From assembly GCA_036172245.1 (NCBI GenBank), contig JAYWIR010000004.1, forward strand, positions 3,162,001 to 3,226,000: a stretch of 64,000 nt of DNA, given 5' to 3'. Under the pieces are notes generated by a model, which was not told where the DNA came from, did not search any database, and was given only the letters and a program-made list of their open reading frames with translations. Positions 21,931-64,000 of the stretch are shown one piece after another (within the stretch, counting starts at the first letter, position 1; each line of letters opens with the position of its first letter). Origin of the DNA: Raillietiella orientalis. Lineage: Eukaryota. The position numbers and the translations under genes were made by a program.

Positions 21931-21949
21931 TGCTACATGGCATCCACGA

Positions 21950-25950: not shown

Positions 25951-25999
25951 CAGAGAGCTCTCGGAGGTGACATTTTTTCTTCTCTGGCGTGAAACTAAA

Positions 26000-37685: not shown

Positions 37686-38508
37686 ATGTCATGTGATATT
37701 CAAAATCAAGAATTTTTGTGGAGCGTTTTTAGAAAGTGAGTATTCTGTACACTTGCACTGAACATCACAATACTGAAATTTATTAAGTTTATGCAGTTCT
37801 TTGAATATTGCAGTGTCATGATATGCATGAAATGCGTTCAAAGGATCAGTATCATAATTCAGTGTCAATATTCTCAATCTCCATAACTCATCTGAGTTTG
37901 TATTGATAAACATTTTACTGTTTCTTCAATATGTAGAGTTGATAGAGATGGCAGTGGTACCATTTCTGCACAGGAGCTCCAAACAGCCCTTTCCAATGGT
38001 ACGTGGACCCCATTTAATGGTGAAACTGTAAGGCTTATGATCGGTAAGTTTTTACTACAATTATTGATGTTACTTATGTATGTGCAGGTATGTTTGATAA
38101 AACCAATACAGGTGGTATTACCTTTCAAGATTTTGGTGCCCTTTGGAAGTACATTCAAGATTGGCAAATGTGTTTTCGCTCCTTTGATACAAATAATTCT
38201 GGAAGCATTGATGCTAGAGAATTGCATCTTGCCTTGATGCATTTTGGATATCGTCTCTCTGAGTCTTTACAGAGAATTTTACTGGCAAAATTTGATCGTT
38301 CTGGCAAAGGAATGATTTATTTTGATGATTTCATACAATGCTGTGTTGTCTTGCATGTAAGTATCACTGCAGTTGTTTGGTTTTCCATATGTTCAATTTT
38401 ACATAGAGTTTAACATGTGCATTCCGAATGTATGACACCGATCTGGATGGTATAGTCACAATATCTTATGAACAATTTCTCACTATGGTATTAAGCTTAC
38501 GCATATGA
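37686..38508 (+). CDS. PDCD6: Programmed cell death protein 6 / ALG-2 (penta-EF-hand)
   Basis: Exons 37686-37735, 37937-38043, 38088-38356, 38407-38508: [47 protein letters not shown]...FGALWKYIQDWQMCFRSFD...FDDFIQCCVVLHSLTCAFRMYDTDLDG..ISYEQFLTMV. Confidence 0.96.
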
Positions 38509-41930: not shown

Positions 41931-44265
41931 CCTTCTTTCATCTGCTTGTACTTCCAATTTGCTGATTTGAAAAATCAGTCAGAATCTGTAGTAAATCTAA
42001 AGCAAAGACTAGAAACTGCGGTTAGAATAAATGGAAAAGGTGATGAATTATAAATATTTTAATTGGTCACTTATGGTTTGTAGTAAGTAACTTTATGATG
42101 GATGAAAAAAATAATCATTTTAAAGCTGTATCAGATGTTGCATCTAAGATTTTATATTTAAATCTCTAGTTAATGAAAGTAGCATGTTTACATATCTGCA
42201 TATAGACTTGCCCATGAAATTTCTTCCAAACAAGGGTCTCAGTTTGGTGAACTAATCACTTGTTTTGGATGAGTTTTAAGTAATGATTTATATTATTCAC
42301 TTCTAAGTTTTTGGTGGCTGAAATATGCTGATCTTGATTGAAAGTGTTTCCTATAGTTATTAACAATTCTTCAAGAGTTATTTAATTAAATGCAGTAAAT
42401 CACAAACAAATTGTTCCAGGAGCCTTCGATTGTCTCTAGTTTTTATGGTTTTATAACCATTGGAATGTTAGACTTCATGCATACATTCAGTTTATTGTAG
42501 TTGATCCTAAAATGAATATCAGTGCTGTGGTTTTGTTGTTTCCGGGCATTATTGAAACATCCGTAATTATTAATATTAATTTGTGATTAAGTTCTTAAAA
42601 TAAACTTTTGAACTATGGTATATACTACCTGAACTGAAGTTGAGCATAAAACATTCAGCGTTTGCTTTTGAATTGAAATTCGCCACAGTGAAGTCCTATT
42701 TTATATGTATGAGCTTATGACATATTCATGATTTTCAAGATGGATAAAAAGAATTCGAAAAGAAAGGCATCACCTGTAAATGAGGAGGATTCAGACCAGC
42801 TGTCGTTCAAATTTCCCAAAGGCTACAGTGCAGCAGCAAGCAATATGATGGTATGTATTCTTATGATGTATTTGGTTTTATTTGAATAAAACAAAGTTAT
42901 CATCTGATGTTAAAAGATACCATAGAGAACTTCAGCTGCTCATGAATTAAGTGAATATTAGGTCATAATAATTATAAGAGATAGGTATGTTTGTAATTTG
43001 TATTATAACTCATTCTGGAGAGAAAATGTTTTTGTAAGGATCAGTATCATATGTGAATAATACCACTTATTGAAATAAAATATCTAAACTACCCTTCTTT
43101 ATGCCTTCTTTCATCTGCTTATGCTTCCAATTTGCTGATTTGAAAAATCAGTCAGAATCTGTAGTAAATCTAAAGCAAAGACTAGAAACTGCGGTTAGAA
43201 TAAATGGAAAAGGTGATGAATTATAAATATTTTAATTGGTCACTTATGGTTTGTAGTAAGTAACTTTATGATGGATGAAAAAAAAAATCATTTTAAAGCT
43301 GTATCAGATGTTGCATCTAAGATTTTATATTTAAATCTCTAGTTAATGAAAGTAGCATGTTTACATATCTGCATATAGACTTGCCCATGAAATTTCTTCC
43401 AAACAAGGGTCTCAGTTTGGTGAACTAATCACTTGTTTTGGATGAGTTTTAAGTAATGATTTATATTATTCACTTCTAAGTTTTTGGTGGCCGAAATACG
43501 CTGATCTTGATTGAAAGTGTTTCCTATAGTTATTAACAATTCTTCAAGAGTTATTTAATTAAATGCAGTAAATCACAAACAAATTGTTTCAGGAGTCTCT
43601 GATTGTTTCTAGTTTTTGTGGTTTTATAACCATTGGAATGTTAGACTTCATGCATACATTCAGTTTATTGTAGTTGATCCTAAAATGAATATCAGTGCTG
43701 TGGTTTTGTTGTTTCCGGGCATTATTGAAACATCCGTAATTATTAATATTAATTTGTGATTAAGTTCTTAAAATAAACTTTTGAACTATGGTATATACTA
43801 CCTGAACTGAAATTGAGCATAAAACATTCAGCGTTTGCTTTTGAATTGAAATTCGCCACAGTGAAGTCCTATTTTATATGTATGAGCTTATGACATATTC
43901 ATGATTTTCAAGATGGATAAAAAGAATTCGAAAAGAAAGGCATCACCTGTAAATGAGGAGGATTCAGACCAGCTGTCGTTCAAATTTCCCAAAGGCTACA
44001 GTGCAGCAGCAAGCAATATGATGGTATGTATTCTTATGATGTATTTGGTTTTATTTGAATAAAACAAAGTTATCATCTGATGTTAAAAGATACCATAGAG
44101 AACTTCAGCTGCTCATGAATTAAGTGAATATTAGGTCATAATAATTATAAGAGATAGGTATGTTTGTAATTTGTATTATAACTCATTCTGGAGAGAAAAT
44201 GTTTTTGTAAGGATCAATATCATATGTGAATAATATCACTTATTGAAATAAGGTATTTAAACTAC
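41931..44265 (+). repeat. Direct tandem duplication, 1173-bp period (41931-43092 and 43104-44265)
   Basis: Both copies start ccttctttcatctgctt and align throughout with scattered substitutions (e.g. ggctgaaatatg vs ggccgaaatacg; ttccaggagccttcg vs tttcaggagtctctg). Confidence 0.97.
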
Positions 44266-47200
44266 TTTCTCAAGTATGTTGTATCTTTTGTTATTGGGAA
44301 GACATAACTGTTAATAAAATCTGAATGACAAATATCAGAATTCTTGTGTTTGCCCTGTAGCTCAAACTTTCACTTTGTAAACTTAGGTAAATTTCAAAAT
44401 GTGCTATATCATTTTGTACTTTTTTTTCTTATCTAAGTGAAACTGTCATTGTTGATTTGGATTATTCTGTGATCAGGAATTATAATTATATTTGAGTTTT
44501 CTGTATGTTTAACCACATGCCAGCTCCTGATAGATATTGAGCTTAAAGTTCAGAGTATATATGTATTCAATAATTTTTCGTACTGCATCAGATAATTCAT
44601 TACGTCTTTTCATGAAATGAGATGGTTTTGCAAACTCAAAATATAAGATTAGGGCAATTTTGGCCATGTTTTCAATTTTGTATAACATAAAAGCTTAGTA
44701 TAGTATCAATCCCTGGTTGCATAAAATGGCTGGAGCATTGTCAGTGTCATTTCTAATCATGTTCACATATATACATCTTGCAGTATGAAATTAGTTCATT
44801 TAATGTTTGCTTATTCTTTGTATAGTTGTGTTAATAAGAATATGTTCACACAAATGAATGTTTATTTCATAGGATGCCAAGGTAGAATTTGTACACAAAC
44901 CAAATGATGCTAAATTAGTAAAATGAGATAATTTTGAATGTAAGTCTGAAATTCAGCAGTATTAGTTATAAAGTAAACCAGTTCAAATTTTATTTTGGAT
45001 CCCTTCTGGAGACATAGACTGGAAATCCAGCATAATAAAGGGTGAAAAAGATGGAAAATAAAGTGTAAAATGCTGCGTACATATTGTTTTAAATTAATCG
45101 TTAGGTTAAGATTTTTTGTGAAAAAGGCACTCATTTTTAATCAAAGTGGGAGCTTTCAAATTCTAAGGCAAACTATAAAGAAAGAAAAAAAAAGAAATAA
45201 GTCTTGGACAGTGAAGAATCTAAAACTTCATCTTGATGCTACACCAGTCACGCAAAAATTAGATGAACAATCAAGCATCTAATAGGATGTAATGAAACTA
45301 TTTCTCAAATTTAAGGACCTCAAAAGACTTTTGAGTTATCAGAAAGTTGGAAAGAAGTCATTCTTTCTAGTCATGTACTGTATTAGCTTTGTTTGATCCT
45401 CTGGAATTTAAAGACAGTTTCATTTCCTTCCTCCAAGCATAATTCTTGTTGTAGACAGTGGACTACACTGGAAACCCTTGAGTAGCTATACTCTTGAAAA
45501 AAAAATCCACTAACAGTGATTAAAAGGAAACCAATGACAAATAAGCACATTAGCAACTTAGTATAGCATGCAAAGAAATTCCTGAATGTTTGAATTGGAC
45601 TTCCAAGAAGTTATAGAATAGCTGAACTGTAGTACTAATTACTTCAAGCATTGGATCTGATATGGAGAGGGGATCAGTAAAAGAATTATAAGAAGAAAAT
45701 GAATGAATTATAACCCTGTTCAGATATTTGAACATCCCCAGAAATAGGAGCAACTAGTTGGAATTTTTGATGTTTTGCCACCTCTGAAAACAACTGTTCG
45801 ACTTGGTCAAGAAAGCAATTTTTCAAGAAACAGAATCCATTGCTGAGTTCTCAGACGAGTACAGATATGTAAAGCTCTAACCAAAATTTTAATAACCACA
45901 TGATTATGTATGGACTTTGCATGTTCCTATACTTCTGGTTAGTTCGTGTTGATCACTTCATGCCCATCACCAGTCAGATAATGCGATTTTGACTCTCGTA
46001 GATTCTTTTAAAATTCCTTGATTTTCTTCTATTTTATAATCCAGATAGGCACTCTGTTGGAATCAGTGGATGGTTTATTGCATATAATTTGGATTTTAAA
46101 CTGAAATCATGAATCGCCTTGTTTTTCATCATGCATCAAATATGGCAAAATACTACAAAATTATTAGGAAGCAAATTACTAAAGAGCTGCAGAAGAGTTC
46201 TTAAATATAACATGAGTTTGAAAGAATCCAATAAAGTGAAAATAAATGAATTTTTCCAATGATTCTACAGAAAAAAGTATGAGAGTAATAATAGTAAGCA
46301 GGAATTCATGTAATATTTTTGTATAGCAGTGTCACATGTAAACTGATAAAAGAGGATGATTCATGTGTATTCAGATGCAAACAAATATTTAAAATTGCAT
46401 TCAAAGCAGTGGAAGAAACAAATATCAACTCTTGTTATGTGGTATTTAATAAAAGTAGATGGAAATTAGGAATTCAGTTTATATAATATGAAGTTCTGTT
46501 TAGCATGAGGTTTATTCTATTGTGAGAAAGTTGTTCAATAGCCTTGGAGTTGCTAAAACAATTATTTTAGTCTAGTAGTATAAAATCATCAATTAGTTTG
46601 TGTTTAATGATTACTATCAGAGAGTTGTGAGTTTGCTTTATAAGGCAATGAAAGTATTCGTTGGAAAAGAATGCGTTGAGCATAAATCGAAATTTGATAA
46701 TTATGAAAATAATAATGATCAAGAGAGCTGCTCAAATTATGACAAGATGGTGCATAAGATTTTAAGAGATTTGAAAGGTGTTTGAAAGCTGTTTGGGAAG
46801 TTAATCCTTCAAATAGCAAGACTGATAGAATCTTAGACTTAGTATTTAGGTAGTATGTGGCGATGTCAAGAGATTCTTATGCTACCTGTGAAGCACATGC
46901 TTGCTTTTTTTAAAAAAAAGAAAAGAAAAAAAGATGTTTCTTTATTTGAAAGTATTCTTTGAATGATGGGAAACAGTTAATTCAACATCATTTCCCCCAC
47001 CATCTCACCCCCCCACCAACACACACACATTTTAGTAGTTTGTTTTTCTATTTCTTTCCAAAGTAATTCGTTATGTAACTTTGTCGCTTTGTTTATTTGA
47101 ACGCATCTTCATATTTTAGGGAAAAATGGGATACAGTATTGGTAAAGGTCTTGGCAAACATGGTCAAGGGCGAGTTGATATAGTAGAAGCATCTACCCAA

Positions 47201-50200
47201 AAAGGTAGACGAGGATTGGGATTGAAACTAGGAAGTATTGAAGATAAGGATGTAACTTGGGATTTTGAGGTTTGTTTGAACAGAGTTGGACCATTCAACA
47301 TAGTAATTTAGGAATACAAGGTTCAAGAGGAAATTGAATGGATGCCCCCAGCTGTGGGTGATTTGCCAGCCACCTTGTCACCCTGGATTAAGGAGGGGCC
47401 ACCAAAGTCGGATATTAGCGATGAGACTAATTTTTGCCGTGGAGAACTTCTGAGTACCCTTCTATCTTCTAAAGTAAGTGTCATATGTAGCAGTGCCATT
47501 TTGCTAGACATGCCAAATTTCTGTAGGATATCTTTGATAACATCACTAGCAGTGAGATGCGTAATGCACGCTCACGATCAAATGTGTTTGAGACAATTCG
47601 CAATGTTTTTTTTTTAAATCGTGCAGCAGTGAAAATGGCAAATTTGGATGCTGTTTTTGGCTTCATGCTGACAAATCCAATGGATCAACGAAATGTGATA
47701 TACATTTTTAGATGATTTTGCCTTAACATTATTTTCAGAAACCAGTTGTGAGTTCTAACAATCTTCTATATTTTGCGGATATCTGTGCTGGCCCAGGTGG
47801 CTTCTCAGAATATATATTATGGCGCAAACGCTGGAGAGCTAAAGGTTTCGGTTTTACTTTGAGGAATGAGAATGATTTCAAATTAGAAGATTTTTTAGCA
47901 GGTTCTCCCGAAACATTTGAACCGTTTTATGGTGAGCTAATTTTACTTTTTAATGAATTTCTTTTAATGGAATATTAGAATGTGAAATACAGATCTTTAT
48001 TTTACTGATTTGGATTAAAGAAGGCTGTTATAAGTCGTTTTTTATTTTTGTTTTGGTATTTGTATGTGTATATTTGTTAAGTTAATTGTCCGTAAGTTTC
48101 TAAGTTATGAAATGCTAAAAGAGGTGTTTTATGGAAAGCAGAAAAATGCCCATTCATCCTAAGTAAAGTTACTTTGCTATTCTTCAAACCCAGGAAAACG
48201 GTTTAAATGCATGATTGCTATGAATTGAACGTGATTATGTGGATCCTAATGTAAATAAAATATTCTGGAAACTTCCAGTTAGGAAAGAGGACTTGAGAAG
48301 TATCGATTATCAGAATTTTTGATGCATGTTTTGCATATACGATATGTGGAAACGCTTTTCTTAAAACTAAGGTGTATGTACTTAAATGACATTCTTTTAA
48401 AGATGATTCAGTACCTGTAGTTAGATATGTGTTTTTGGTTTGATTGCATCCTCTTTCTCTTTTAAAAAAGAAATTTGTCGTTGTTTGAAGTAAGAAACCA
48501 GAACTAATGCTTTTGCAGAGAACTATTTCGCATTTGCAGGTTGCACCGAAATTCAGTTATTTTGAATTCTTCTCTTTAAGGTGTCAATGGATTGAAAGGA
48601 GATGGGGATATTTATAAGCCTGCAAATCTAGTAGAGTTTCGGAAATTTGTTTTGAGCAGTACTGGTGGAAAAGGTGTTCACTTTGTTATGGCTGATGGGG
48701 TGAGTAAAGATGGATCTCTTGTTTTATTTGTGAAGCAGGGATTTTCAGTAGAAGGCCAAGAAAATATTCAAGAAATTCTATCCAAGCGCTTATATTTGTG
48801 CCAGTTCTACTGTGGCCTAAGCATTTTACGGGAAGGTATCATTTCTTAATATACATTGCACATGTGTTTGTTTGTATATTTAGGAGGACATTTTGTGTGC
48901 AAGCTGTTTGATGTATTTACGCCATTTAGTGCTGGCCTCCTATACTTAATGAACCACTGTTTTCATAAGCTGTGCATTCATAAGCCCAATTCCAGCCGCC
49001 CTGCTAATTCAGAAAGGTTTGTTTAAGAATGTCTTATGTGGTCATTTATTTTTAATCAGATACCTAATTTGCAAGTGGAAGAAAGTCAATTGTCGGAATG
49101 TAGAAGACTATTTGTTTGAAATTAATTATTGCCTTGAGAAGCTTGCACCCAATGGAAGTCGAGATGTATGTGAGATAGTCCCTTTGAATGTATTACTGGA
49201 TGATCAACCATTTGTTGAATATCTAACGCGCTCCAATGAATGGTAATTACAGTGTGAAACATATCAAGAATATCTATTTGCATTAATAGCATGGCACATA
49301 AGCAGATTGTGCAGCTAGAAAAAATTTACGCATTTTGTCAGAACACGTATGTTGAGCTTCATGTTGACCTGAGTTTACCACTTGGTTCAGCACATTGCAG
49401 GAGACACGACAAGCGGAAGCACGGAAAGCTTGTTTGGTGTACTGGAATCTTCCTGATGATAAGAGACGAGCACCTTCCAGGGGCATTGATGCACTTGAGA
49501 GCCGATTGCGTACTTTGGGTCATGGTAATGCCAAATTTAATGTATTGGGTCTTTCTATCATTTGTCAATGTGCAGTGTTCTTCAGTTTGCAAGAACCAAA
49601 ATTGACTTCGGAAACGTTGAGAAATATTCACAGCATTTATGATTTTTCTTGTGTTGTTTTGGGCACTGAGCAGTCCGCTCATGACAAAAAACGTGGCATA
49701 TTTTACAGTATGTATTGAAACCTGTGGACTCCATGTAGTGTCTAGGCCAGGGACGGAGCAATATTTTCAAATATCATGAAGGATTTTGGAGAAAAGTTGA
49801 CCTTAGAGTAGAGATTCCTGCTGATACGTTAGTATATGCTGAAATCGTAGAGGAACTTAAAGAAGGCAGATCTCTGAAAAAAATAACTGCTTTTCACATA
49901 ATTGATGCCTTTCGCTTAGGTGGTGAAGATATCTCAGAACTGTTTTATGAGGATAGGTTTGTGTGATGTTTTTTGTCAGGTTTTTGCATATTCTCTGCTG
50001 TAGGCATCAATTATGCCAGTTATTTGTAAAAGCTATAAGAAAACCAAGTCTTCCAGAGTTGGTGATTGTATGGGTTAAAGAATTGTATCCACTAAATGAG
50101 ATTCAGAATCTCTTTGATAAGTATGTGTCTATATCAAGGAAGAAGCATACTTATTTCTAAAAATGTTGATTTGGATTCCAGGCTTATCAGAGGTCTTGGT

Positions 50201-50623
50201 CCCAACTCTGGAATGGTATTCTGTTTACGTCCTCAAGAAGCATATATGGTGCCAAAAGGCATCATGCTAGTTAAACTTGTAGCAAGTAGGGCGAATATAA
50301 CCAAGCTGCTTAATAAAATATTTTAGATCCGTGGCTCATGGCATTCAGTTGTAAGCAAAAGCGACGTTATTGGTTTCACACACGTGGGGAAGCAGAGTCC
50401 CAGTATGAACGCCCTGAGGATGCTTGTCTTCCTTTTGAGTAAGTTGTGTGAATTGTTATTCAAAGAATTCCGCCATGTTTCAAGGAAAACCTTTGGAGAT
50501 TCATTATGGTGGTGGTGGAAAGAAGGTGTAAAAGTGATGAGTCACCATGATGCCCACAATGGTGAAGTTCATGCTGAAAGCCTTCTTGACTATCTAAATG
50601 CTCTAAAACTTAAAATAGCCTGA
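42740..50623 (+). CDS. CMTR1: Cap-specific mRNA (nucleoside-2'-O-)-methyltransferase 1
   Basis: First coding exon 42740-42850 (duplicate at 43913-44023) joins 47120-47269 to form the G-patch [39 protein letters not shown]. FtsJ domain: [72 protein letters not shown]. Then a GTase-like region and WW-like [17 protein letters not shown] at 50621-50623. Confidence 0.95.
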
Positions 50624-50999
50624 TTTAGAGTATTTTATTGGCAGTGAGCTGAGCTCAACGCACTTGATGTGCATGCATTTTTAATATGTTATTTCTAGAT
50701 TTTTAATGGAGATGCAAACAATATTCCAAAGATGAAAAATAAAAGACAAAGGATATGATCAAAGAAAATGCCAAAATAAGAAAATGATCTCAAGATGCAT
50801 ACTTGCACATTTTATATTTCACAAATTTGGGCCTTTTGGGCCAAATGTTGAAATATATTCTCAACATTTCGTATGCTTACCTTGTAGTTCCACAATCCTG
50901 TTTTTGTATTATAGTATACTTAGCAAAGAGTGTTTCTTCTGGTTGTACTTAACGCAGGCATCAATAGAAAATATTTGTTGATAGTGTACACAGCATTTT

Positions 51000-53100
51000 A
51001 AACACATTCCATGTCGTTTACAACGTTGACTGTTTTCATTGTACATTTACCCATGTTTATGTTTAATCGATTCAAAAACAATCCGCTAAAGTGTAGCAAA
51101 ATTTCCAAGTGTTTGGGAGCAGTTTGAGAGTCAGTAGCACATGGGAGACATATTAACTTATTAGGTGACTGGCTTCCATGAACAAAACGTCATGTGGCTA
51201 GTCAGCTAGTAATGCTACAAACCAGTTTTCCGATTCTTAATGAGAACGAAAGCAAATCTGGGAATTTTGTGTGCATGAGATGCAAGCAACACACCTCAAG
51301 GGAATTACTCATGCATTATGCTTTAATGCGAATGTGATTTCTATTTTGTGCATTTCACTCTACTTGTTAAAACAACATTTGATAGAAATCCGCGAAACAT
51401 GGAGATATTTCCATTCCTTCTTACCCCGATTCTTACCTTACCTTATATGTCTGCCAGTAAATGCCATGGAAGCAGGGAAAAACTGATGAAAAAGCGGATT
51501 GTGCGTGCATATGAAAATATTTTAAGTGAACCAATGCAAGAAGTCAACTGTTTTGCACTGCAAACAATTGTTCTATTGATGGGCAATTTGTAGCCCCTGG
51601 GATTAAAAGAATTTACGAATTGTGCCTATCCATTCTCTACGGTTAGCAGCCAAGCACGAGGACCACTTCGAATTCTGTGTTTTTTCATTTAGCTATGCTG
51701 CCGGTTGTACAATAAATATGCAATCGCCTTTCCTTTGATGTTTTTCTTTCGCCTCCGAGAACAAAACGTTTTATAGAACACAATGAAAAGCCCTAGTAAT
51801 GGATCGCCAATAAAGGATATGAATGACGTATTTTATTGACACTCCTCCACTGCTGACACGGAAAAAAAGTCTGATATTTTTTATACATTTTTCTTTCATT
51901 CCCTTTACCAGCCGGAGCATGTACGGATCTGTCCAGTAGCTGCAATTTTGCAGAAAACTGCTCGCCCTGGTACTGTATTGCAGAATGAGTGATCTCAGTG
52001 TAAGTTGCGTTATATTCAGAACTTCGGCAAAATAGCTAAGCAGGAAAAAAAAAAAAAAAAAAAAAAAAAGGCGTAACTTGTAACGCGGCATAAAGTTGCG
52101 GCGCTGCATAGATGTTACAGCCACTTCCTCATTGTGGAGGACATCCAGAAGCATCTGTCACACTGAGGAGAACTTGACGGCTGAAGTGTGTGCCTGATGT
52201 TATACTCTGCTTCCGGAGAAAAAAAAAAAAACGAGCAATTTTAGCAGAATCAAAAGCAAACTCTTGGGATAGGTAAGAAACTCTTAATCACCAATTACCG
52301 AAAAATTCAGCACAGCTGCAATTGCAAACCAGATCATTCGGCAGCTCCGCTATAGCCAAGTGAAGCAATAGAGAGCTATGTCAAGTCGACCTTTTCCACT
52401 GCTCTTTCTGGAAGAATTTAAAGTGAGAAAAACACACAATTCGAAATAAACAAGGCCATAAGTACAGCGTCAGTGTGTTCACACACAGATTAAGAAATCA
52501 GAATTAGTCTTAAATGCGTTTCAGAAACCTATATTGACGGAGTTTCAGCTATGGAGGAGGAAGACCATGATGAGTTCCGTGCAATACTGTTGATGAAGAT
52601 AGTGCCCGAGTGATAATAGTAACAAAATATCCCAGAGCAGGTAAGGTACACAAATTCCTGGTTTGCTCAAACGATGAAAATTCACTGTTTCATCAAACAA
52701 GATTTCATAATTCCTTTCCGAGTATTCAAAGAATGAATAAATTGGGCAGGTGTGCGCAGAAAGATTTCATATCTGTTTCAGTTGTTATAATCCGAAGATC
52801 CTAATTCTGTCTAAGTGACATAGGTAATCCTTCATGTTTAAGAAAACTGTTTGGGATGCTTCTTGCCGACAGATCTGTGTTCAGAATAGTGATCAGCTAA
52901 TTCTTTTTTTCAAGTTTGAGAAAACTTGTTCGTTACCGTCGCTTCTATTCCTGTAATAATCAACGTTTTTCTTTGGTTCCGTCTCTCTTCAATCTGCTGT
53001 GGGTTCCAGCCTGTTTGAAAAGAGTTTTCACGAATCATTCATCAAGAGTGACTCATGACAAAATCCAATTTATTTACTGAGATTCTAGCTAACAATATCT
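51000..53100 (-). mobile_element. Decayed LINE RT remnant
   Basis: ORF 52154-51771 ends YWRSIT (WRPIT motif), and a CPLS-like remnant follows at ~51140; multiple stops. Confidence 0.35.
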
Positions 53101-53141
53101 AAAAGACTAAGTTCTAAAACGAGTGTCCTTCCTTTCACTGC

Positions 53142-53172
<31 letters not shown>

Positions 53173-53209
53173 GCAAATGCACAAATTCCCTTGTCTCTAT
53201 TAGAACCTC

Positions 53210-53990
53210 AAAGGTCACGCACGATAAATGCGTCAAGTAGATCAAACTCCAATGATGGCTTCGAAGAAAGCAAAATCAGGATGAATCTCAGACAGAAAGA
53301 TCTCAGAAACAGGCCGCGTGGTAACGGTGGTCTCCGCACGTGGCACCATGCGTCGTGGGTTCGAATACACTCTGAAAGGAATCGACACAGTGCGGCATGG
53401 GTTCCGAATTTACCCCACAAGATGATGCTGGTTGGCCTACATTCATCTGGGTGCGGCACTGGCAGCGGTTGAAACCGGATACCCCCCTGATGAGGGCCGG
53501 GACAAATGGGAGTCGACCTCCGGGTGTTCCAGGAATCACTGAGTGGGAGCTCCCCTCCAATTGTGAAGGAGCGGACCCCCCATTCCGGGAGGAACCCCTC
53601 TGCGTCGTACTGATGGGGTAGGTGTGTCGTCACTACCTCTCGAGAGAGTGCGAGCCGATCCCTTCGGGGAAGCTGAGCCCTTCCCAATTTCATAAGCGTC
53701 CCTTCTGGGTTCTCTTCAGAGGAGTAAAAACAGGAGCGGATCCCTTGAGAGGGATCCCTTCGGAGAAGAAATTCCAGGATCGGATCCCTTCCGGATTCCC
53801 TTCAGAGAAGAAAAACTGGAGCAGACCCCTCCAAGGGTCTCTTCGGAAAGAATAAGGAAAGAGATTCCCTTCTGGATTCCCTTTCGGAGACAATCAGGGT
53901 GGAGCTGATCTCCATTTCCGGAGATCCCTCCCCAGGCGTGAGAGGAACGGACTCCAAGTCCTTTCTGGATTCATAGGGCGAAATGAGAAA
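53210..53990 (+). mobile_element. ORF1-like fragment plus ~81-86-bp tandem repeat of the same family as 21050-21750
   Basis: PQDDAGWPTFIWVRHWQRLKP vs SQDDADWPVRVRQCWKP. The DNA cgtcccttctgggttctcttcagaggag matches the reverse complement of ~21205-21232. Confidence 0.55.
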
Positions 53991-53999
53991 ATGCAGGTT

Positions 54000-56900
54000 T
54001 GGCAAAGATCACGCTACTCATTAGTATAATTCGAGGATCCATTGATCTGTTGTGCAACACCCAACCAGCCTCATTCCCCAAGAAAAAGGAAAAGGCGAAA
54101 GTGAAAAGAAACACAACGTTTTGTTCTCACTCTTGTTTTTGATTTTTTTCGTCAGGAAATGAGAAAAAAATCCTTTTCGGCATTTCGTGGGTGGCAATTG
54201 AAACCAGTGGAGAAACTTTAGACTTGTCAGCAACAATTTGGGAGAATATCCACTAACTCTACAGAATATTCTCCCAGACTCTCTTGGAAATGGAAGAGGA
54301 ATCCGATGTCAAGTGGTATCTCAAGACTACACCATTTCCTTTTGAGTACAAACTTCATAAGCAAGTGAAATTGAACTCATCATGTCGTAAACGGTCATGA
54401 ATATTTAGCAATCCTGCCTGACGGTATAAGCTTGACAAGTGGCAAAGTCTTAATTCTGAAAAAGCATGCTTTGTGTAAATTACGGATTTGGTTTCGCATC
54501 GAAAGTCACCAGGAAACTTCCCCTTTTCACACACTTCGAAGGTGGGAATGTTTTAAGGAAGGGCAGGAACAAGCAGATGTGTTCTTGCAGAAGAAAATCG
54601 AACTCAAACTTAGTTTGCATTGCGGTTAAGGGAAGACGAGTTCCTGGATGAAAATCGTGACTTTGATCGGAATGGGTGGAAATGCAGTTCAATCTACCAT
54701 CTAAGATGATTCGACTTACCGAACTGCAGGTCAGATCTGATAGAATTCGGATTTCGCTTGCTTTGCCCTTGCTGTAATGTGGCGATCTTTCCTTTTTTTT
54801 TTTCTTTTTTCTCCCTGCTTGGCGTGCACGTAACTTCTCGATCCTTGAGAGCAGGAACTGAATTTTCCTTCCTCCGATGACGAGTCACTCGAAACAAGTC
54901 GAATTCCTCTGAAAGCTTAGTTCCGTTCATTTTGCGAACGGCACTTTTTTGCTCGTTCTGCTTTTCAATATTGTGCAGCTTCGACAGTCAGACGTAAAGG
55001 CTGACCTAGGTGACAGAAAATAATAATAACAGAGATGAACAAATGCAATGAAATGATGATTTTATCATGGAGTAATGCAATTTTGATTACATTGGATTTC
55101 GTTACCCTGTTGAGAGCTGCTTGTTCAAAATAGTTCAAGGTGATGATTGAATGCTCCCGTGAGAAGAAATCCTTCCAAGTTTGTCTTTGAACGTTCGAAT
55201 GGATGTCTAACAAAAAGAGGAAGTGCAACTTTTGTGAGCATCTTAAGTTTATGAGTTTTAGAAGACGGCTTCTTAACGGTGCATTATGTTGTGCACACAT
55301 GCCATTTTTTTCCGAGCAAAACATCTCTTCTGGTGACCAAGAACTGAAGAACGAAAACAGTGATGTTTTTTTATTTTTCCTTTCTCTCTGATTCATCAGG
55401 AAATAGAATATTGTATTTAGAAGGCAAAGTGTAACGAGGACTCTGCAGATCAGCTGGAGTCCAGACATGAGATGCAAAAGTGCAAGCGGACGGGACCACT
55501 GTTGCTATGTACTTACGAAAGTTCAAAAAGAAAAAAGTCTGTTGTGTGCCATTCTGGAAGGGAAAAGAAGAGTTCAGTCTCATACGACACAATATTTTCA
55601 AGAGCAGAGATGTTGACAAAGACTCACTAGATCTACTGGCTATCTCTACAATTCGCGTGCTTATCAGAATGGTCTGAGGATGGAATGCATGGCACTTGGG
55701 CATTCCAGTCGGAATCGGATTTCCTGATAGAATTCGCACTACAAAAACAAGAGGATTCATTTTCAATTTCTTAGGAACATGCTGCTCATAAAGTCAGCAT
55801 CCCAAGTATCTTATGGGAAATAAAGGCACAGGTTTAATCAGTTCAAAGAAAACTTCGAATCAAAGAAAACACGCAGCAATCTGATGCACTTCCTGCGAGA
55901 GGTATGTCGCCCGGCGACATACCTCTCAGAAAAAATGTATGAAAAGAAAAGTAGAGAGAATTTTTCCATGTCCTGAAGGTTCCACTAGGAGAGGGGGGAA
56001 CGTCCTAAGTTTTGTTAGAGGATTGCTTTCAATACGATCTGCAGGTCCGATCTCGATGCAATGAATAACCCAATTCTTCAGAAAATAATTCGTAGATCAG
56101 TGAATTACTGATAGGAAGGAAGCTTGTTTAAAATTTTCCTTAATGGATTCCTCTAGACGTGAAAGTTTCAGAAATCAAGCTGTTTACTAAAACAATTCGT
56201 CACGAGGACACAAACTGAGTTTTATTTGATTTCTCGTATTTGAGAAGAGCAGTCTGGTAACTGAAAAAAGCACCCCCGCATGCATACCTTACAGAGAAAA
56301 CTCTAGAAATTGTCCACTTTCAGCGAGATAGCAGCTTCCGTCAAAAGCCACTAGTAGCTTTTCATCTAGACGGACGCAATTTGATAACAAGAGTTCCTTT
56401 TGAAATTGTGCTCTAAGATGATGAGGTGCTGTTTAGCAGGTTACGTGCAAAGGATTGATCTTCCTTATTCGTGTTCAAATGCACTCAGTTCCTTTTTTCA
56501 CAATTTGAATGTTCTCGAAGAATAGCTTCACCTGCTTTAGTTTATGTTGGATTACCTGATATTTTAAGTTTCTAACATTTTGGGTTTCACTAACATTTCA
56601 CCAAGTTCACAGACATGCAGTCGTGGAGGCTTTCAGAAGACTTGCGGAATATTCTCTCGAATCCTCTGAGAAATGGAAGCGGAATCTGATATCATTTGCT
56701 GTTTCTAACAGAATACATCATATCATTCTTTGTACAAGTTCCATAAGAGATGAAACCCCGAACCCATAGTGGACTGTTGTGACCGAAAAAACAATCTGTG
56801 TCTCTCCTGATTCTTCGGGAAAATCATGTTCGGGTACAACTGCAATGAGCTTAGAAGAACATTAAGAACTTGCAGGTTCCGCTGGAATATTCGGCAATAA

Positions 56901-58918
56901 GTTTCTTTGTAACGGAATTTTCGTTAGTTATTGACTTGTAAGAAACGTGATCACGGTGAAATTTGGGCAACAGATACACGGGAATAGGATCATTGGTGTC
57001 AAAAATGGGCTTTGAAACTTGGGTTCAAAAGTTCCCAGAAACCGACCGCAGATCTGCGCAGACGCATTCCATCGATGAGTCTTTCTTGGTTGAGCTTCAC
57101 ATTCTAGCTGCGGTACTGCATATCTGAAATGCGGTTGGAAAACTGTTTTTGTAGAGACATTTGTGCAAGAGTTTTCTGCAACTGCAGAAGAGCACTCGAA
57201 TCATTCCTACTACCTCTACTCACCTAAACTGAATATATGCTTCTGTTTGTAAGGAGCTCATTCTCATGGACAAGTGGTTCTTCTGTTCAGTAGTTGCAAC
57301 TGTGGCCATTAGAACTAACGTCTCCTGAAAAAAATGTGGAATTTTGTTTCGGGTACTGAAGTAGAAAAATGAAAGAGCCCAAGTGAACTACATGATGAGT
57401 GATCTCGCTTTGTGTTACCAGCAGTGTGCCGAAAGACGTTGCTATTTGCCGTGACTATTCGCTCTTTCAAAGACAGTGTTATCGGAAAACGTGGAAGATG
57501 GCTGAATTTCATTGACTTTTGACATTCTTTGCTATCGAATTCGAATAAGGTTCCCCATGCTTCCATATTGCCGATTCTCGTGGGGGGGGGGGCAAAAAAG
57601 TAAGCGCTTAATGCCGACAGATTAATAAGTTACCGATCCGTCCATTAAGTCAAGTCTTGGAGAAAATTCCTTTTGCCATATGCTTTCTGATTTCGAATGC
57701 AACTCAGCCATCATTTCCGGAGTGAAACATTTCGGATAATTTTCCCTGGCTCTGAAACATCCGTTCTCGGCGAACAAAACGAAAGGTATTCTTTCCTGCA
57801 GGCTACGTGCGTCTCTTTAAAACTTCTCTTCTGAATCGAAATCAACTTCACCTGAGTTACAAACACAGGAAAGCATGAAAAAGCTGTCCATAGAATTTCG
57901 GAGTCAATTTTCCAGTTATTCATTCAAGTAGTTCTGAGACTATTGTCTTGAGAGAGAGCTCCATGATGCTCTTCTAGTTTGCATTGCATCATCTGATTTG
58001 CAGATATCCAGAAGCAATGAGTTTCCCAGTGGTTTCCCAAGAACATACGATACAGTTTTCTAAAAGAAAGAAAGGGAAAAATCACCTATTTTCGAAGAAA
58101 CTAGTCAACGTATTAAATGAAAGAGATACCTATTGAATCTTCATAACTTTGTGTTTGTGCTCTCTTCGAAGAAAATCCTCCTACGAACTTGAACTTGAAT
58201 TTCAAAACAAAACGGCCTTAATGCGAGAAGCATTTGGACGAGCAATCTGAAAAGTTTTCAGCGGTCCATTTTCTGCTAGAATTTCCACTTTTCCTCGATG
58301 CATTTTTGCAGTTCAGCGTATCATCTTATTGAAGAAGCTTTTCGTAAATCAACTTTCACAGTGCGACGAAAAACTTCTAATGATCTCATGACTCGTATGA
58401 TGCAACTCAAGTTTCATTTGGGATGAAAACGGAAGTTAAGAACAAATACTGGTCTTCCCTAGAAGTTGAAGAACTAAAGTGGCAACTTTATTTCTTCCAT
58501 CCATGCCTGGTACCCTTCTTCGTCATACTGTATTCTTCATATAGTTATACAAAACTTCATCAAAGCACTTGACATGTGCCATATTCTCCAGGAAAGTCAA
58601 TGCTGTAGTCCTTTGTAAATTTTTTTTCTTTTATGCCATAGTTCTTAACCCTTCGAGCTAAATGAAGAAACTCACTATTGTATCCAAACTGGACATTCTT
58701 AGACATATCTTCAATACCTTCACAGGACTTTCGCTTTGTGCCTGAAATTCTTAATCACTTCTTCCCCATTCTGGGATCGACCGACCTTTATTAACATGAG
58801 ATCATGGAAAAAAGATTGAACAGTTTTATTTTCCACTTTTCTTTCCATCTTTTAAACTCCTCCTTCATTCCATGGGTCTACTCCCTTCAATGGATTCTTC
58901 AGTGAGAAGCCAGGGAAC
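54000..58918 (-). mobile_element. Nest of decayed LINE fragments
   Basis: Two mutually homologous segments (~54262-54380 and ~56646-56770), a PLS-like RT remnant (~55990) and a KG..GM-like remnant (~58510); no intact ORF. Confidence 0.35.
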
Positions 58919-59492
58919 AGATGAAGCGGGACTTGATTATATCGAGAATACGGACGAGCTCTAAGAGGGGAAGAAATATATGGTGATATTCCTGGAAAAA
59001 AGCGTAAAAGAGTAATACCAAGTCTCATTAGTAATAGACAAATGAAAAATGGCTCTTCTTGCCTATAATTGAGGGGTTAAGCAAATTTATAATACATCCC
59101 ATTTGTCTTCCCAATAACAAAGGTTGGTATAAGCATAATAGGTGGATGGATTGAAAAGAAGTTCATTGCACCAACAACTTTCAGGGAAGGATGTAACAAG
59201 GAAGTATTTAATACGTGGTTAGAGCAGATATTATTGCCACAGTTGCAGCGTGGTATAAGATAACTATAGTTATGGATAATGCTACATTTCACAAGACCAC
59301 TAAAACAAAGTCATTAATAGAGTCTTTTGGCTGCCATTTCCTCTATCTTCCAACATATTCATCAGATTTGAATCTATAGAACACTGTGGGCATACCATCA
59401 AAAGTCGCCTCAGACCTCTAATGCAACAATACACAGCTTTTAGTTGGTAATACTATAATTGATATTTATCATTCATTTTAGAAAGTACTATA
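58919..59492 (+). mobile_element. Bacterial IS630-family transposase pseudogene, 3' half with terminal end (Wolbachia-type)
   Basis: DDE triad: DEAG...YREYGRALRGEEIYGDIPGKKRKRV|SIIGG...VFNTWLEQILLP...IVMDNATFHK...LYLPTYSSDLNxIEH. Several frameshifts; ends ...TTTTAGAAAGTACTATA. Confidence 0.88.
59016..59129. mobile_element. 114-bp MITE-like insertion inside the IS630 ORF
   Basis: Termini TACCAA...TTGGTA within imperfect ~30-bp inverted repeats (shared AGACAAATG/CATTTGTCT). Flanked by TAA at 59013-59015 and 59130-59132; removal restores AGA GTA AGC ATA (RVSI). Confidence 0.8.
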
Positions 59493-59570
59493 GCCATAAA
59501 TATTAAGAAATTTACCAGGCGAAAAAAAGGCAAAAGAAGCCCCGTGGTAGCTAGTTATTTACTTTCCATA
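59493..59570 (+). repeat. Probable Wolbachia dispersed intergenic repeat
   Basis: GCCATAAATATTAAGAAATTTACC...AAAAAAGGCAAAAGAAGCCC...TAGCTAG resembles, from memory, a repeat common in Wolbachia genomes; not verified by search. Confidence 0.45.
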
Positions 59571-59579
59571 AGATGGTAC

Positions 59580-59619
59580 AAGCCTCCACCTTCTAGGTGG
59601 AGAAACTTTAGTTTGTCAA
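59580..59619 (+). mobile_element. IS200/IS605-family right-end relic
   Basis: AAGC-CTCCACCT-tct-AGGTGGAG hairpin (59584-59602) followed by TCAA at 59616-59619, the subterminal hairpin plus tetranucleotide layout of IS200/IS605 right ends. Confidence 0.5.
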
Positions 59620-59642
59620 TGTCATAACTGTACTTTATAAAG

Positions 59643-60134
59643 TATAGATATTTAGGTGGAGAGCAGGCAAGTGTTATGCCGATTCCACTCATCAACATAA
59701 TTAATGGCGGAGTACATGCGGACAATAAACTCGATTTTCAAGAATTTATGATTCTCCCTGTTGGAGATGAAACTTTCAGTGAAGCGATCAGAATGTCTGC
59801 AGAGGTGTTTCATAATTTGCGCGGCATTCTCAAGAAAAAGGGTTACAGCACAAACGTAGGTGATGAAGGTGGTTTTGCATCGAATATCGAAGGCACCGAA
59901 GAAGCTCTTAATCTGATAATTCAGGCTGTAGAGTCTGCTGGTTATTCAGTGCAAAATCATTTTGCGCTAGGTCTTGACGTTGCTTCATCTACTTTTTATG
60001 AAGATAAAATTTACAAATTTGAAAATAGAGAGCTTACTTCAGAAGAATTGGCTCAACACTATTGCGATCTTGTGAAAAAATATCCTATAATTATCCATAG
60101 AAGATGCAATGAGTGAAGATGATCACGCAGGTTG
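59643..60134 (+). pseudogene. eno: Bacterial enolase internal fragment (Wolbachia/Rickettsiales-type), truncated at both ends and frameshifted
   Basis: [39 protein letters not shown]...TNVGDEGGF...[12 protein letters not shown]...KYPII, then +1 nt at ~60093, then [13 protein letters not shown]. No introns; bacterial-type short loop after DVAS. Confidence 0.92.
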
Positions 60135-60549
60135 ATTCAATTGATGTTGACTACTTTGGTGTTGACTGTTGCTACGTTATCCAGAGAGTAGTGTTATAAA
60201 AATGCATAAGAGAATGAGGGATGCTGGAGCTGTTGTAGTGAAGGCAATTGTCAACAAGAAAAATAAATTGCCAGCACAACTCCTCTTTCATTCCAGTCGT
60301 ACGTCGTCGTCAAAATTCGTACAAATAGTGGAAGATTGCGTACACTTGTCACTGTTGCTGATAGCTGAGAAAGAAAGGATAAATAGCATAATCTCCCAAG
60401 GTAGCATTTAAATCTGTATGGATCAAAAAAGGGAATAAACGCACTTAAGTAGAAAGAAATTAAGGAAAATAAAAGTAAAACATTGATATTGCCAAAGACA
60501 ATGGACAGAAGAAATATATGGAAACCGTTGCGCGGGCAACTCCTAACCA
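60135..60549 (+). pseudogene. Unidentified decayed gene fragment, possibly endosymbiont ankyrin-type
   Basis: 80-codon open stretch (60169-60411), then a frameshifted GINAL...NKSKT-DIAKDNGQ resembling the end of an ankyrin repeat; joined directly to the enolase break. Confidence 0.3.
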
Positions 60550-60595
60550 AACACTACCTAATATATGGATCTTTATCCATATATTAGGTAGTGTT
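60550..60595. repeat. Perfect inverted repeat, 21-bp arms, 4-nt loop
   Basis: AACACTACCTAATATATGGAT-cttt-ATCCATATATTAGGTAGTGTT. Confidence 0.95.
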
Positions 60596-61199
60596 CTCCA
60601 AATCTTCAAAACGCTTTGCAAGAGCTTAAAAATCAGTTAAAGTTAACACCAAAATTCATTTGGCAGTGCTAACTTTCAGGAAACGGAAGGAAGTGTTCAA
60701 CAAAAAGAGACAACCGTCCATTCCACAAATTTCTGGACCTACAAACAACATGCATGAGATAAACCTAGAAGCATTTTATAATCTACTCAGGGAATTAATT
60801 CACTCACAATAATCACTTCGAAAAATCAGTTTTACTTGAAAAAAAGAAAGTAGGATGAATATAGTGATTTAAAAAAAAAAATCTGAATTTCAAAACATAA
60901 ATGCATGCGACCATCTAAATATTCAGGTCGGTATTTTGAAATAGAACTTCATCAAAATCACTCACAAATTACTGCCACAAAACCATAAAGCTCGGAAAAA
61001 GTTTTACTGAAAAGAACGGAGCAACCACCTTTCTTACGTTCCAGCAGCAAACTTCTTCTCTGCAATCCATTACTATAAGAAACTTGTAAGTGAAGTGAAA
61101 TCAATTAATCAAGCTTGATGCAGGGTGTGTTTTGCTGCTGTAAAAGTTCCTTGATGATGAGCAATCTTCCGATGATACATCGGTTTTCCCCAGTCCGAC

Positions 61200-62480
61200 T
61201 TGCGGCGGGATGAATTTATTTTCAATTTTCATTCATGGATGCGCTTGTCAATGCCATTGGTTTTCACTGTTTTTCACTTTCAGGGTGGGTCTTTGGGCAT
61301 CCAGTCATTGAGTTCGCGTGGGGAATTCACTCACTTGACAATGTTCCTGAATCCTTCGCAGGATGTAACAGTACGTCCAAGTGGGAAGGCGTCCACAGCT
61401 TCTAATCCCAATTTCCCTCTTCACTAATCCTTTGAGGATTTCCACAGCTGGCACACTGTTTATTCCGATCCGCATTTTTGCTCTTCTCACCACGATGCTC
61501 GTGATAAAGAGGGCGATGGTGATGCGGACCGTTGGGTTGTGTCGGGGAACGTTGCCCTTCCCTTCAAACATCCCTGCCAGGATCTCCATCTTGTCCATCC
61601 TCTGCAGGCCTGTCACCTCCTTCAGCTTGGCCGAGTCCTGGCGCAGCGCCGGGCAGGTGAGCACGTGGAGTTGGGTTTCCCTGGCTTCACAGTTCTTGCA
61701 CATCTCGTCTTGAGCGTTCCCTGACCAGTGCCTCGTCCTCGTGACACTCAGGATGCCTCCGTGATAAAACATCAGGAGGTCATCTTGAGTGTCGGGTGGT
61801 AACTCGCTCGTCCAGACCGTGGTTCCAACAGCCAGCAGGCTCACCTGTCGGCATCCGTAGTGGCTGGCGGCCTCAGGCAGAGCGTCGTCCTCGTCGGGAT
61901 TCATCGCTATAGCTCGCTGAAAATTTGCAAGTGATCAGGCGCCAGCAGTTGGATTCCTGATTTGTCCAGAGCTCTCAATATTTGTGGATAAATCTTCCCA
62001 TCATCTTCTTGGTGAGGCAGAATAGTCGCATTTTAGGGCGGTCGCCACTGATTGCGAACTGCTCGCAGGCATTTATGGTTATCCTTGGTCTTTCGGAAAT
62101 CCACTTCCTGGTGTCCCAAGGGACGCGCAGGAAGCACGGGATGATCTTGGCCAGTTCCTCTCTCCAAGTTTGCTTACTTCTAGCCACTATTTTGGTGGGT
62201 GTTCAGTGCCTGCTTGCGCTCTCAAGTGGGATCGATGTTTCCCCACTGCCCTTGTTTGCCTATTTGGGCAGACATCCAGCCTCTCGAATTGTGGAGTAGC
62301 TGCGAGTGGGCTTTGTGCGCCACATAAAGCCACTCGTCCATCCCATTTGGTGGCAAGATCCAGAATTTGTCGCACGTCCTGCAGATCCATGGATTGCTCG
62401 AGAGATTTCATCCCGGTCCCCCCCTTGTCTCGAGGTCGGCACAGCAGTCTTAGCCTGCCCCGCGGTTTAAACTCCATGAA
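61200..62480 (-). mobile_element. 5'-truncated L1/Tx1-like LINE, 3' part of ORF2
   Basis: LLCRPRDKGGTGM (post-RT motif) and CCHC knuckle CKNCEARETQLHVLTCP in a 199-aa ORF (61904-61305). GC-rich against AT-rich flanks; AATAAA on the minus strand at 61216-61221. Confidence 0.75.
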
Positions 62481-63670
62481 ACATCAGTTTTGCAAGCATA
62501 TGTTTAAATGCTATAAGGTCCTCCAAAGTGTCCCCTAAGAAAGTATGAGTCTCTATAGCAATATGCATCATGTAACATAGGTATACGTAATTGAAGAGTA
62601 TTTATTCAAAAATACTATATGACACCTAATATAATGAATATAAATATATCTTAGAATGAGAAAGTAGAGTACACTTTTTGATCTGAATGCTATAAATGTA
62701 CAGAATATTATATGTTTAAGAGACTTTAGAAGACATGTGTTGCAAAAATATGATTTTACGTTGGCTCAGTTGGCTTAACAGGGAAGAAAATTTGATACAT
62801 CAAATCATTTATTGATGAATGAATTTTCTTCAAGAATTTTTTAAAATAAAAATACAGGAAAGTCAAGTCAGATTATTTATTCTTGCTTGCTTTTTTCCTT
62901 CGAGTCAAAAAATGTACTTTCCACAAAGGGGGATTAAGAGTTCATGGACTGTGTAAAATATAACTAGTATGAAGGAAATATAGTCATGAATGTTAATCAT
63001 TATCCCTGAACTGTTAGTAGCAGCCTTCTTATGTGATTTCATGTATTGCAAAGTACAAGAAAGTGTTCGAATAGCAAATATTAATAATAGTCTCGTGGTG
63101 AAAATGGTGCCTGGTTTCATTCGCTATAATAATTTGAGTCGATATGGTTGTAAAACATTGCTAATATGCCAGCAGTTAGAGCTGCACTTATCTTGGAATG
63201 CAGTGAACAGTTTTGTTTTCAGGTTTTTCTACTAGTTCAAAGAGGACGAAGGTTTCAAAATCGAGCGAGTTATTCTGCTATAACCAATCGATAAATAAGA
63301 AAAAGGAAAAGTCGAGGTCTTTTGAGGTGGCGAATCACTCCAAGAGAATTGTTCGACGATCCAAACTCCACCAAAAATGAAGCCGTGCACCTCCACTAAG
63401 GGACTCTGAATGCCACTCTGTGGTAATATGAGCCACTCAGCATGGGCATTTAAGTTCTCGACTTTCATTAGGATGTCGCAGAATCATCTTCTTTGTTTCC
63501 ACTTTTTCTATGTTCCACCTTGGAAACATAATAACATTACATAATTATCAACCTGAGCAAGGCGTGTATATATCATATTTGCATTTGTTCCTTTTCCTAC
63601 GGTGTTATTCTTTCGAAACATTTCCGACTTTTTTTCCTGAGAATGCATGATGAAGGCTAAGGCTAGAACT

Positions 63671-63830
63671 CTATTTCGTCTCGTGTGTGATAGATCTTGG
63701 ATGAATTTTCCGTTTCCAGTAGTGATAATAATGATAGTAACCAGTAAATTCATGCCAGTTATCAAATGTCCATATTGATTTCTGTGTAAGTGGGAGATTT
63801 GGGTGCAAGAAATACAGATGTTCCCCACGC
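63671..63830 (-). CDS. Possible terminal exon of a gene continuing beyond the window
   Basis: Acceptor atatag at 63831, then RGEHLYFLHPNLPLTQKSIWTFDNWHEFTGYYHYYHYWKRKIHPRSITHETK*. No homology recognised, and another frame is also open. Confidence 0.15.
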
Positions 63831-64000
63831 CTATATTGAAATTTCTTCGATCGCGTTTTCGATGAAATTAAATGTAAATATGACTGAGGAACAAATGAAA
63901 AATTATGCCTGTAATATAAATAATGGAAAAAATTAATGATTTATAAACATGCGCTATTATCAGTGTACATGTCATTCTTCAGAGAGGTTCACTTGCTAAT

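Follow-up and report, generated by a model that had tools for sequence, protein, structure and literature searches.

A candidate nuclear Wolbachia transfer of supergroup F type in a 64-kb stretch of animal DNA

How does a run of bacterial gene pieces, none of them whole, come to lie between the intron-split genes of an animal? The question is raised by positions 58919-60549 of a 64-kb window, which is the whole stretch of DNA analysed here (64,000 nucleotides of contig JAYWIR010000004.1 of Raillietiella orientalis). An original prediction, made from the letters alone, had proposed a mosaic of Wolbachia DNA at this place. The Wolbachia-derived stretch covers 58919-60280 (1,362 bp) and is probably a real but non-functional nuclear Wolbachia transfer (nuwt) of supergroup F type. 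It is composed, in this order, of the remnant of an IS630 transposase gene split by a 118-bp repeat, a repeat of approximately 80 bp, the left end of an IS200/IS605 element, a piece of the enolase gene (eno) and a piece of the RNase J gene (rnj). All coding pieces of the island are truncated or frameshifted.

All 60 genomes of the genus Wolbachia that were searched with DNA match the span 58919-60549. The left joint between host and insert lies at 58918|58919, and the right limit of the likeness to Wolbachia lies at approximately 60271-60280. Of the span first proposed (58919-60549, 1.6 kb), the left edge was therefore confirmed, but the right edge was not, as the insert measures 1.36 kb. When the rest of the window (1-58999 and 60281-64000) was compared with five Wolbachia genomes, no other match was found.

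Composition of the island and its donor

The enolase piece is an internal fragment of 492 bp at 59643..60134 on the plus strand, which covers approximately codons 127-290 of 425 and lacks a start codon. An open frame of 162 aa (59628-60116) matches the Pfam family Enolase_C at 8.3e-52 (176.7 vs 21.5; profile positions 2-152 of 296) and positions 127-281 of 425 of TIGR01060, where it reaches 201 bits against a full-length cutoff of 300. The piece is a fragment of an enolase gene and not an enolase. The frame is shifted and ended by a 1-bp insertion near 60093.

Among the best 52 protein matches of the enolase frame (67-91%), every named source is a Wolbachia, except for one protein labelled as that of a spider. 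The best named match is the enolase of the Wolbachia of Alcedoecus sp. (wAlce), at 91%. After these 52 the matches drop to 58-60% and belong mostly to Bacteroidota and to unnamed metagenome proteins. Of the 80 loci kept from species-representative genomes, only two were close matches by tblastn, namely wMoz (88%) and wMmer (76%). The DNA identity of the enolase piece is highest for G039 (93% over 492 nt, the best of the 60 genomes), followed by 92% for G044, G041 and G012, and 91% for G036, G019 and G001, the last of which is wMoz.

A maximum-likelihood tree of enolase DNA (32 rows, 491 columns) was used because the protein tree did not resolve the group that contains the window. In the DNA tree the window belongs to a set of 11 rows, wMoz and wMmer among them, which is separated from the 21 other Wolbachia rows with support of 97/99. 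The end branch of the window has a length of 0.05, compared with 0.054 for wMoz. Excerpts of PMC10195089 place wMoz in supergroup F, and excerpts of PMC9903615 do the same for wAlce and wMmer. The grouping with wMoz and wMmer, together with the best named match in wAlce, points to a donor of supergroup F type, as judged from one gene fragment of 491 nt. The spider-labelled protein (P0021) is a 729-aa "enolase" of Trichonephila inaurata madagascariensis that is 84% like the window's enolase piece and also contains the GTP-binding domains PF01926, PF02421 and PF01018; it looks like Wolbachia DNA that was annotated as a spider gene, by way of contamination or of transfer.

The RNase J piece is a 3' fragment of a beta-CASP ribonuclease gene at 60129..60280 on the plus strand (152 bp), which corresponds to approximately residues 438-490 of 527 and carries a 4-bp deletion at ~60166. 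It is 94-95% like the 3' part of the RNase J gene in five Wolbachia genomes (G001, G036, G039, G041 and G044). The open reading frame of the donor locus (L083) matches RNase_J_b_CASP, RMMBL and RNase_J_C.

The IS200/IS605 left end is a non-coding piece with hairpins at 59553..59651 on the plus strand, which breaks off where the start codon of tnpA would stand, with no tnpA after it. Positions 59556-59651 are 98% like a stretch of 96 nt in G007 (L110, 1496-1591) that immediately precedes an IS200/IS605 TnpA gene, and the end is 96% like its counterpart in G048 (L111). The open reading frame adjoining this end in L110 encodes 145 aa and matches Y1_Tnp at 7.8e-40 and NF033573 with 145 bits (cutoff 55). 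A complete element of this family holds a Y1 TnpA gene between two hairpin-bearing ends, of which the window retains the left end of ~96 nt, with TnpA absent. In G048 (L111, G048:C1:354300-357400, ~1525-2188) an IS630 transposase gene is interrupted by an IS200/IS605 left end, and a gene for an IS4/IS982-like transposase lies beside it.

The remaining pieces are the IS630 remnant and two short repeats. Three public runs (X1, X2 and X3) share small portions of the window's words (0.15, 0.07 and 0.06), and no RNA run is among them. X2 and X3 come from other organisms, which carry live Wolbachia at high depth with 88-95% likeness to the insert.

The middle part of an IS630-family transposase gene is found at 58919..59012 on the plus strand. 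It begins at the DE(A/S)G motif and shows a 7-bp deletion relative to the Wolbachia copies; by tblastx, positions 58937-59014 are 73% alike over 26 aa to IS630 copies of two Wolbachia genomes (G047 and G051; L106 and L107). In L107 the match to this part runs without interruption into the part that matches position 59132 onward. The 3' part of the gene and the right end of the element lie at 59132..59492 on the plus strand. Compared with the copies in X2 and X3 this part is frameshifted, by +5 bp at 59256, -1 bp at 59372 and -8 bp at 59432, and it is 80-82% like multi-copy elements in G047, G051 and other genomes. Two frames within 59093-59379 match DDE_3 (6.9e-12), and one of them matches NF033545, the IS630 model (2.1e-13). 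The DDE_3 domain is partial and spread over three frames, the helix-turn-helix part is missing, and NF033545 gives 50.4 bits where its cutoff is 100. The IS630 piece is a remnant, truncated at 58919 and interrupted by the 118-bp repeat.

That repeat (59013..59131, plus strand) is a short Wolbachia repeat that resembles a miniature inverted-repeat transposable element (MITE), with imperfect terminal inverted repeats and TA on either side. It is 85-89% like several copies in G031 and G012 and 74-81% like copies in G039. The high-depth IS630 contigs of X2 and X3 cover 58935-59013 and then jump to 59130/59132, so that 117/118 bp with the ends TA..TA are skipped. The second repeat (59491..59569, plus strand) is a highly repeated intergenic sequence of ~80 bp, for which dozens of matches of 80-93% were found per genome in five Wolbachia genomes; the best of these is L108, with 93%.

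Each part of the composition first read from the letters is borne out by these comparisons. The IS630 transposase is supported by the DDE_3 and NF033545 matches and by the likeness to Wolbachia copies, the "IS200/605-type end" by the sequence upstream of TnpA in G007, and the enolase by Enolase_C and TIGR01060, and what had been called a further fragment is the 3' part of RNase J. The claim that all pieces are truncated or frameshifted holds throughout the island. A Wolbachia donor had also been named, and an enolase phylogeny had been suggested; the DNA matches of eno (93%), rnj (94-95%) and the IS200 end (98%), set against 58-60% for enolases from outside Wolbachia, support that donor, and the phylogeny, run on DNA, places the window on the side of wMoz and wMmer.

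Joints between the pieces

The joints fall into two kinds. The 118-bp repeat within the IS630 gene and the joint of the IS630 end with the short repeat look like products of ordinary transposition within the bacterium, and in G047 an IS630 end is followed contiguously by the same short repeat. The joint of the ~80-bp repeat with the IS200 end, where the two sides overlap in ACTTT (up to 9 of 10 nt), could be a product either of transposition or of end joining. Given the similar nesting in G047 and G048, nested mobile elements of the island's kind are native to Wolbachia, and 58919-59651 (733 bp of nested mobile elements) may already have been one contiguous piece in the donor.

The joints of the second kind tie mobile or coding DNA to the interior of a gene. 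Where the IS200 end meets eno, the two sides overlap in TATAG(A)TAT, with 5 nt perfect and 8 of 9 matching in all. It is the inner side of the IS200 end, at the start of tnpA, that is joined here and not the terminus, and therefore transposition did not make this joint. At the joint between eno and rnj, which leads from codon ~290 of enolase to residue ~438 of RNase J, the overlap is AGGTTG (6 nt, perfect). For random blunt joints in DNA of the insert's base composition, the probability of an overlap of at least 5 nt is 0.0067 and that of at least 6 nt is 0.0021.

Neither of these two joints was found in the 60 Wolbachia genomes or in the Wolbachia of X2 and X3, and the 30-nt word that spans the eno|rnj joint does not occur in metagenome_contigs. 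The contigs of the live Wolbachia in X2 and X3 carry the pieces singly, one to a contig, and diverge from the window at the joints. These absences argue against a mosaic that pre-existed as a junk region in the donor and moved as one piece of 1.36 kb. Living Wolbachia do nest mobile elements in the same way, as seen in the IS200 end inside IS630 of G048 and in the IS630 end with its short repeat in G047, and pseudogene fragments are reported in supergroup F genomes in excerpts of PMC10195089, but such an origin is regarded as improbable.

In six single-contig Wolbachia genomes the genes for enolase and RNase J are 127-438 kb apart, and their relative orientation is opposite to that in the window in four of the six. 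The island thus differs from living bacterial genomes in joining, in the middle of genes, loci that are far apart there, and in its frameshifting insertions and deletions. The description of the locus as "stitched from several loci" is sustained in this sense.

A mechanism that would account for these joints begins with DNA of a supergroup-F-like Wolbachia entering an animal chromosome. The island carries at least three donor segments, namely the 733 bp of nested mobile elements, 492 bp of the enolase gene and 152 bp of the 3' part of RNase J. Segments one and two are joined through 5-9 nt of microhomology and segments two and three through 6 nt, which would be a mark of double-strand-break end joining by the host. 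The capture of several bacterial fragments at a single break is held to be somewhat more likely than not and is favoured over later deletions within a larger insert.

Deletion is the alternative in which the nuwt is real but is what remains of a far larger colinear insert, up to a whole Wolbachia genome, cut down by microhomology-mediated deletions. The microhomology at the joints fits deletion as well as it fits capture, the relative orientation of eno and rnj is that of the window in two of the six single-contig genomes (G012 and G042), and very large nuwts are known from PMC4299567 and PMC3849323. Against these points, two or more deletions, each exceeding 100 kb, would be needed, none of which could have left another fragment in the 59 kb on the left or the 3.5 kb on the right, and the orientation in the other four genomes would call for an inversion as well. 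The low private divergence of eno (2.6%) also leaves little time for such a history. A deleted larger insert is held to be rather unlikely, and capture at one break is kept as the preferred route.

The 269 bp at 60281..60549, which the original span had included, match nothing in the collections searched. Against the 60 Wolbachia genomes only chance matches of at most 33 nt in A-rich sequence were obtained by DNA search; two translated frames gave nothing credible against Wolbachia, the best hit (E 0.0085) crossing three stop codons; and no match was found in phage or plasmid collections or in Pfam. Directly after this tail, 270 bp past the end of the Wolbachia likeness, comes a perfect palindrome at 60550..60595, with arms of 21 nt and a loop of 4 nt, which is unique in the window and gave 2 matches where 0 were expected from 100 shuffles. 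The tail and the palindrome are either host DNA or filler made at the insertion, and the palindrome could be a host MITE or hairpin or else the scar of break repair. An exact 14-nt direct repeat, GAAGAAATATATGG, occurs at 58970-58983 in the IS630 piece and at 60508-60521 in the tail, with unlike surroundings, and is probably due to chance.

A more far-reaching version of the capture route can be put forward, though only tentatively, as it is held to be unlikely in full. At least three fragments of a lysed supergroup F Wolbachia, together with 269 bp of filler that ends at the 21-nt palindrome, would have been joined by microhomology at one break, in a host lineage that has lost supergroup F or was never known to carry it. 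The insert would then testify to a lost infection, as its "ghost", and would preserve base by base the way in which bacterial DNA enters an animal germline.

Host context, sequencing reads and decay

The DNA around the island is eukaryotic and belongs to an animal. The gene for CMTR1 lies at 47120-50600 on the plus strand and is split by introns, with the G-patch domain at 47120-47308 and the FtsJ domain divided among three separate frames between 47727 and 49023. The best named matches of the gene are cap-specific mRNA 2'-O-methyltransferase 1 proteins of arthropods and cnidarians, and no match exceeds 84%. An RRM2 exon (33284-33784, minus strand) is at most 81% like any protein, and an exon of a penta-EF-hand-type gene is found at 38048-38413 on the plus strand. 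The matches of CMTR1 and RRM2 are a mixture of arthropods, cnidarians and other invertebrates. The insert is intergenic and lies ~8 kb downstream of CMTR1. In the assembly it is flanked by host DNA on both sides, in one contig with the intron-split CMTR1, RRM2 and EF-hand genes.

The intron-rich CMTR1 at about 8 kb had been recognized correctly in the original prediction, as its domains are split over separate frames. The debris of long interspersed nuclear elements (LINEs) that was said to flank the island finds less support. None of the 118 frames of at least 55 aa in 40000-58950 and 60250-64000 matches a reverse transcriptase in Pfam at E<=0.01. In its favour stands the frame 61308-61934 on the minus strand, for which there is an Atlas lead (0.94) to a cluster with zf-RVT in 25% of its members. 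The same frame contains a CCHC-like motif, C-x2-C-x7-H-x4-C, which we take to be of the kind seen in the tails of LINE ORF2. Three GC-rich blocks (20700-26000, 53200-54000 and 61250-62500; GC content 0.53-0.57 where profiled) have long open frames on both strands without a Pfam match and are likely remains of retrotransposons; the block at 61250-62500 has no DNA likeness to the other two. A self-comparison of the flanks (56000-64000 against the window) returned only the palindrome, so that the flanks are not repeated inside the window. No match to Rfam was found in 58000-61500 at E<=1, nor in the whole window at the gathering score.

Among the sequencing runs, X1 contains exact contigs for three parts of the region, namely 58701-58870 (depth 8.6), 59595-59745 (depth 2) and 60549-60804 (depth 2.1). 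The contig at 59595-59745 crosses the joint between the IS200 end and eno by 48 and 94 nt, which shows that this joint is present in raw data, with a depth close to that of the right flank. The word depth of the left-flank contig is about fourfold that of the insert and right-flank contigs (8.6 vs 2 and 2.1), and 58701-58870 may be a low-copy host repeat. No contig with the enolase of a living Wolbachia was found in X1, although contigs of so thin a run cannot show absence.

Several observations count against a nuclear insert in decay. The depths in X1 are contig-wide word depths of a thin run and are too low to separate a nuclear from a bacterial copy number, and X1 may be the sample behind the assembly of the window and so no independent support. 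In X1 to X3 no read or contig crosses 58918|58919 or ~60280|60281, with most of the insert uncovered in the thin run X1. GC content does not mark the insert, at 0.367 in 58919-60280 compared with flank values of 0.372 and 0.346. The tail of 269 bp (60281-60549) is without a match. Lastly, the enolase frame is open for ~150 codons, and its substitutions are not clearly different from those of living relatives. The insert therefore appears to be only slightly decayed, and not datable.

The 13 private substitutions of the window in 491 nt of eno (2.6%) are distributed over the three codon positions as 6/2/5, with 5 synonymous and 8 non-synonymous. Nine relatives on the same side of the tree, taken together, have 61 substitutions (12/12/37), of which 35 are synonymous and 26 non-synonymous. 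The shift towards non-synonymous changes suggests neutral decay, in numbers too small to rely on. Insertions and deletions are found in all three genes: eno has gained 1 bp, rnj has lost 4 bp, and IS630 shows four such changes. With truncated genes, shifted reading frames and no start codon, none of the pieces would be able to encode a working protein.

The missing junction reads and the little-decayed enolase frame would also be expected of an assembly artefact, in which Wolbachia reads from an infection were misjoined into a host contig and nothing was integrated. Wolbachia reads are common in sequencing samples of arthropods, as stated in excerpts of PMC9894559. A misassembly is nevertheless considered very improbable, because a misjoin would bring in colinear and intact bacterial sequence, and what the window shows instead are frameshifted internal fragments of two genes, fused in mid-gene, whose loci are separated by 127-438 kb in living genomes. 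Host-like DNA stands on both sides in one contig, and the IS200|eno joint is present exactly in the X1 contig at the depth of the right flank. Since loci that are far apart in living Wolbachia are joined within genes, and intron-split genes surround them, a real, decaying lateral transfer, as first proposed, is the best reading of the island. Integration would then have taken place in vivo, and the insert would be a neutral fossil of a present or past infection.

Comparison with known transfers

The island is probably a further nuwt, which is a well-known kind of transfer from bacterium to host. Nuwts are defined in PMC3849323 and are there described as mostly degenerate and intergenic in Brugia malayi. 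According to excerpts of PMC12693587, the nuwts of 22 filarial species serve as "ghosts" of past infections, supergroup F included, and nuclear Wolbachia inserts have been used to reconstruct past infections, including the loss and replacement of symbionts. The present insert would add a record of an infection of supergroup F type for its host, and its joints within genes, with microhomology of 5-9 nt, document how the pieces were joined. A search of the open-access literature on microhomology at Wolbachia inserts returned nothing specific, which does not show that nothing is in print. Since no piece can be expected to encode a working protein, no functional consequence is foreseen for the host. 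Surveys by polymerase chain reaction or by reads that target Wolbachia enolase, RNase J or IS630 could, in this host, score positive from the chromosome alone.

The island, as assembled, resembles the nuwts of arthropods and filarial nematodes in that short, degenerate pieces of Wolbachia genes lie in intergenic host DNA and the supergroup of the donor can still be read (excerpts of PMC3849323 and PMC12693587). It differs from them in being a single island of 1.36 kb that consists mostly of the remains of mobile elements, with two gene fragments. Mosaic nuclear copies of mitochondrial and plastid DNA (NUMTs and NUPTs) arise where organelle DNA is inserted at nuclear double-strand breaks by end joining. 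They share with the island the joining of non-adjacent donor fragments, head to tail, with a few bases of microhomology, whereas the donor here is a bacterial endosymbiont and not an organelle. In living Wolbachia of supergroup F, IS630, IS200/IS605 and short repeats show the same kind of nesting; in contrast, the elements in the window break off at 58919 on the left and at the inner side of the IS200 end on the right, are fused to gene fragments and are embedded in eukaryotic DNA.

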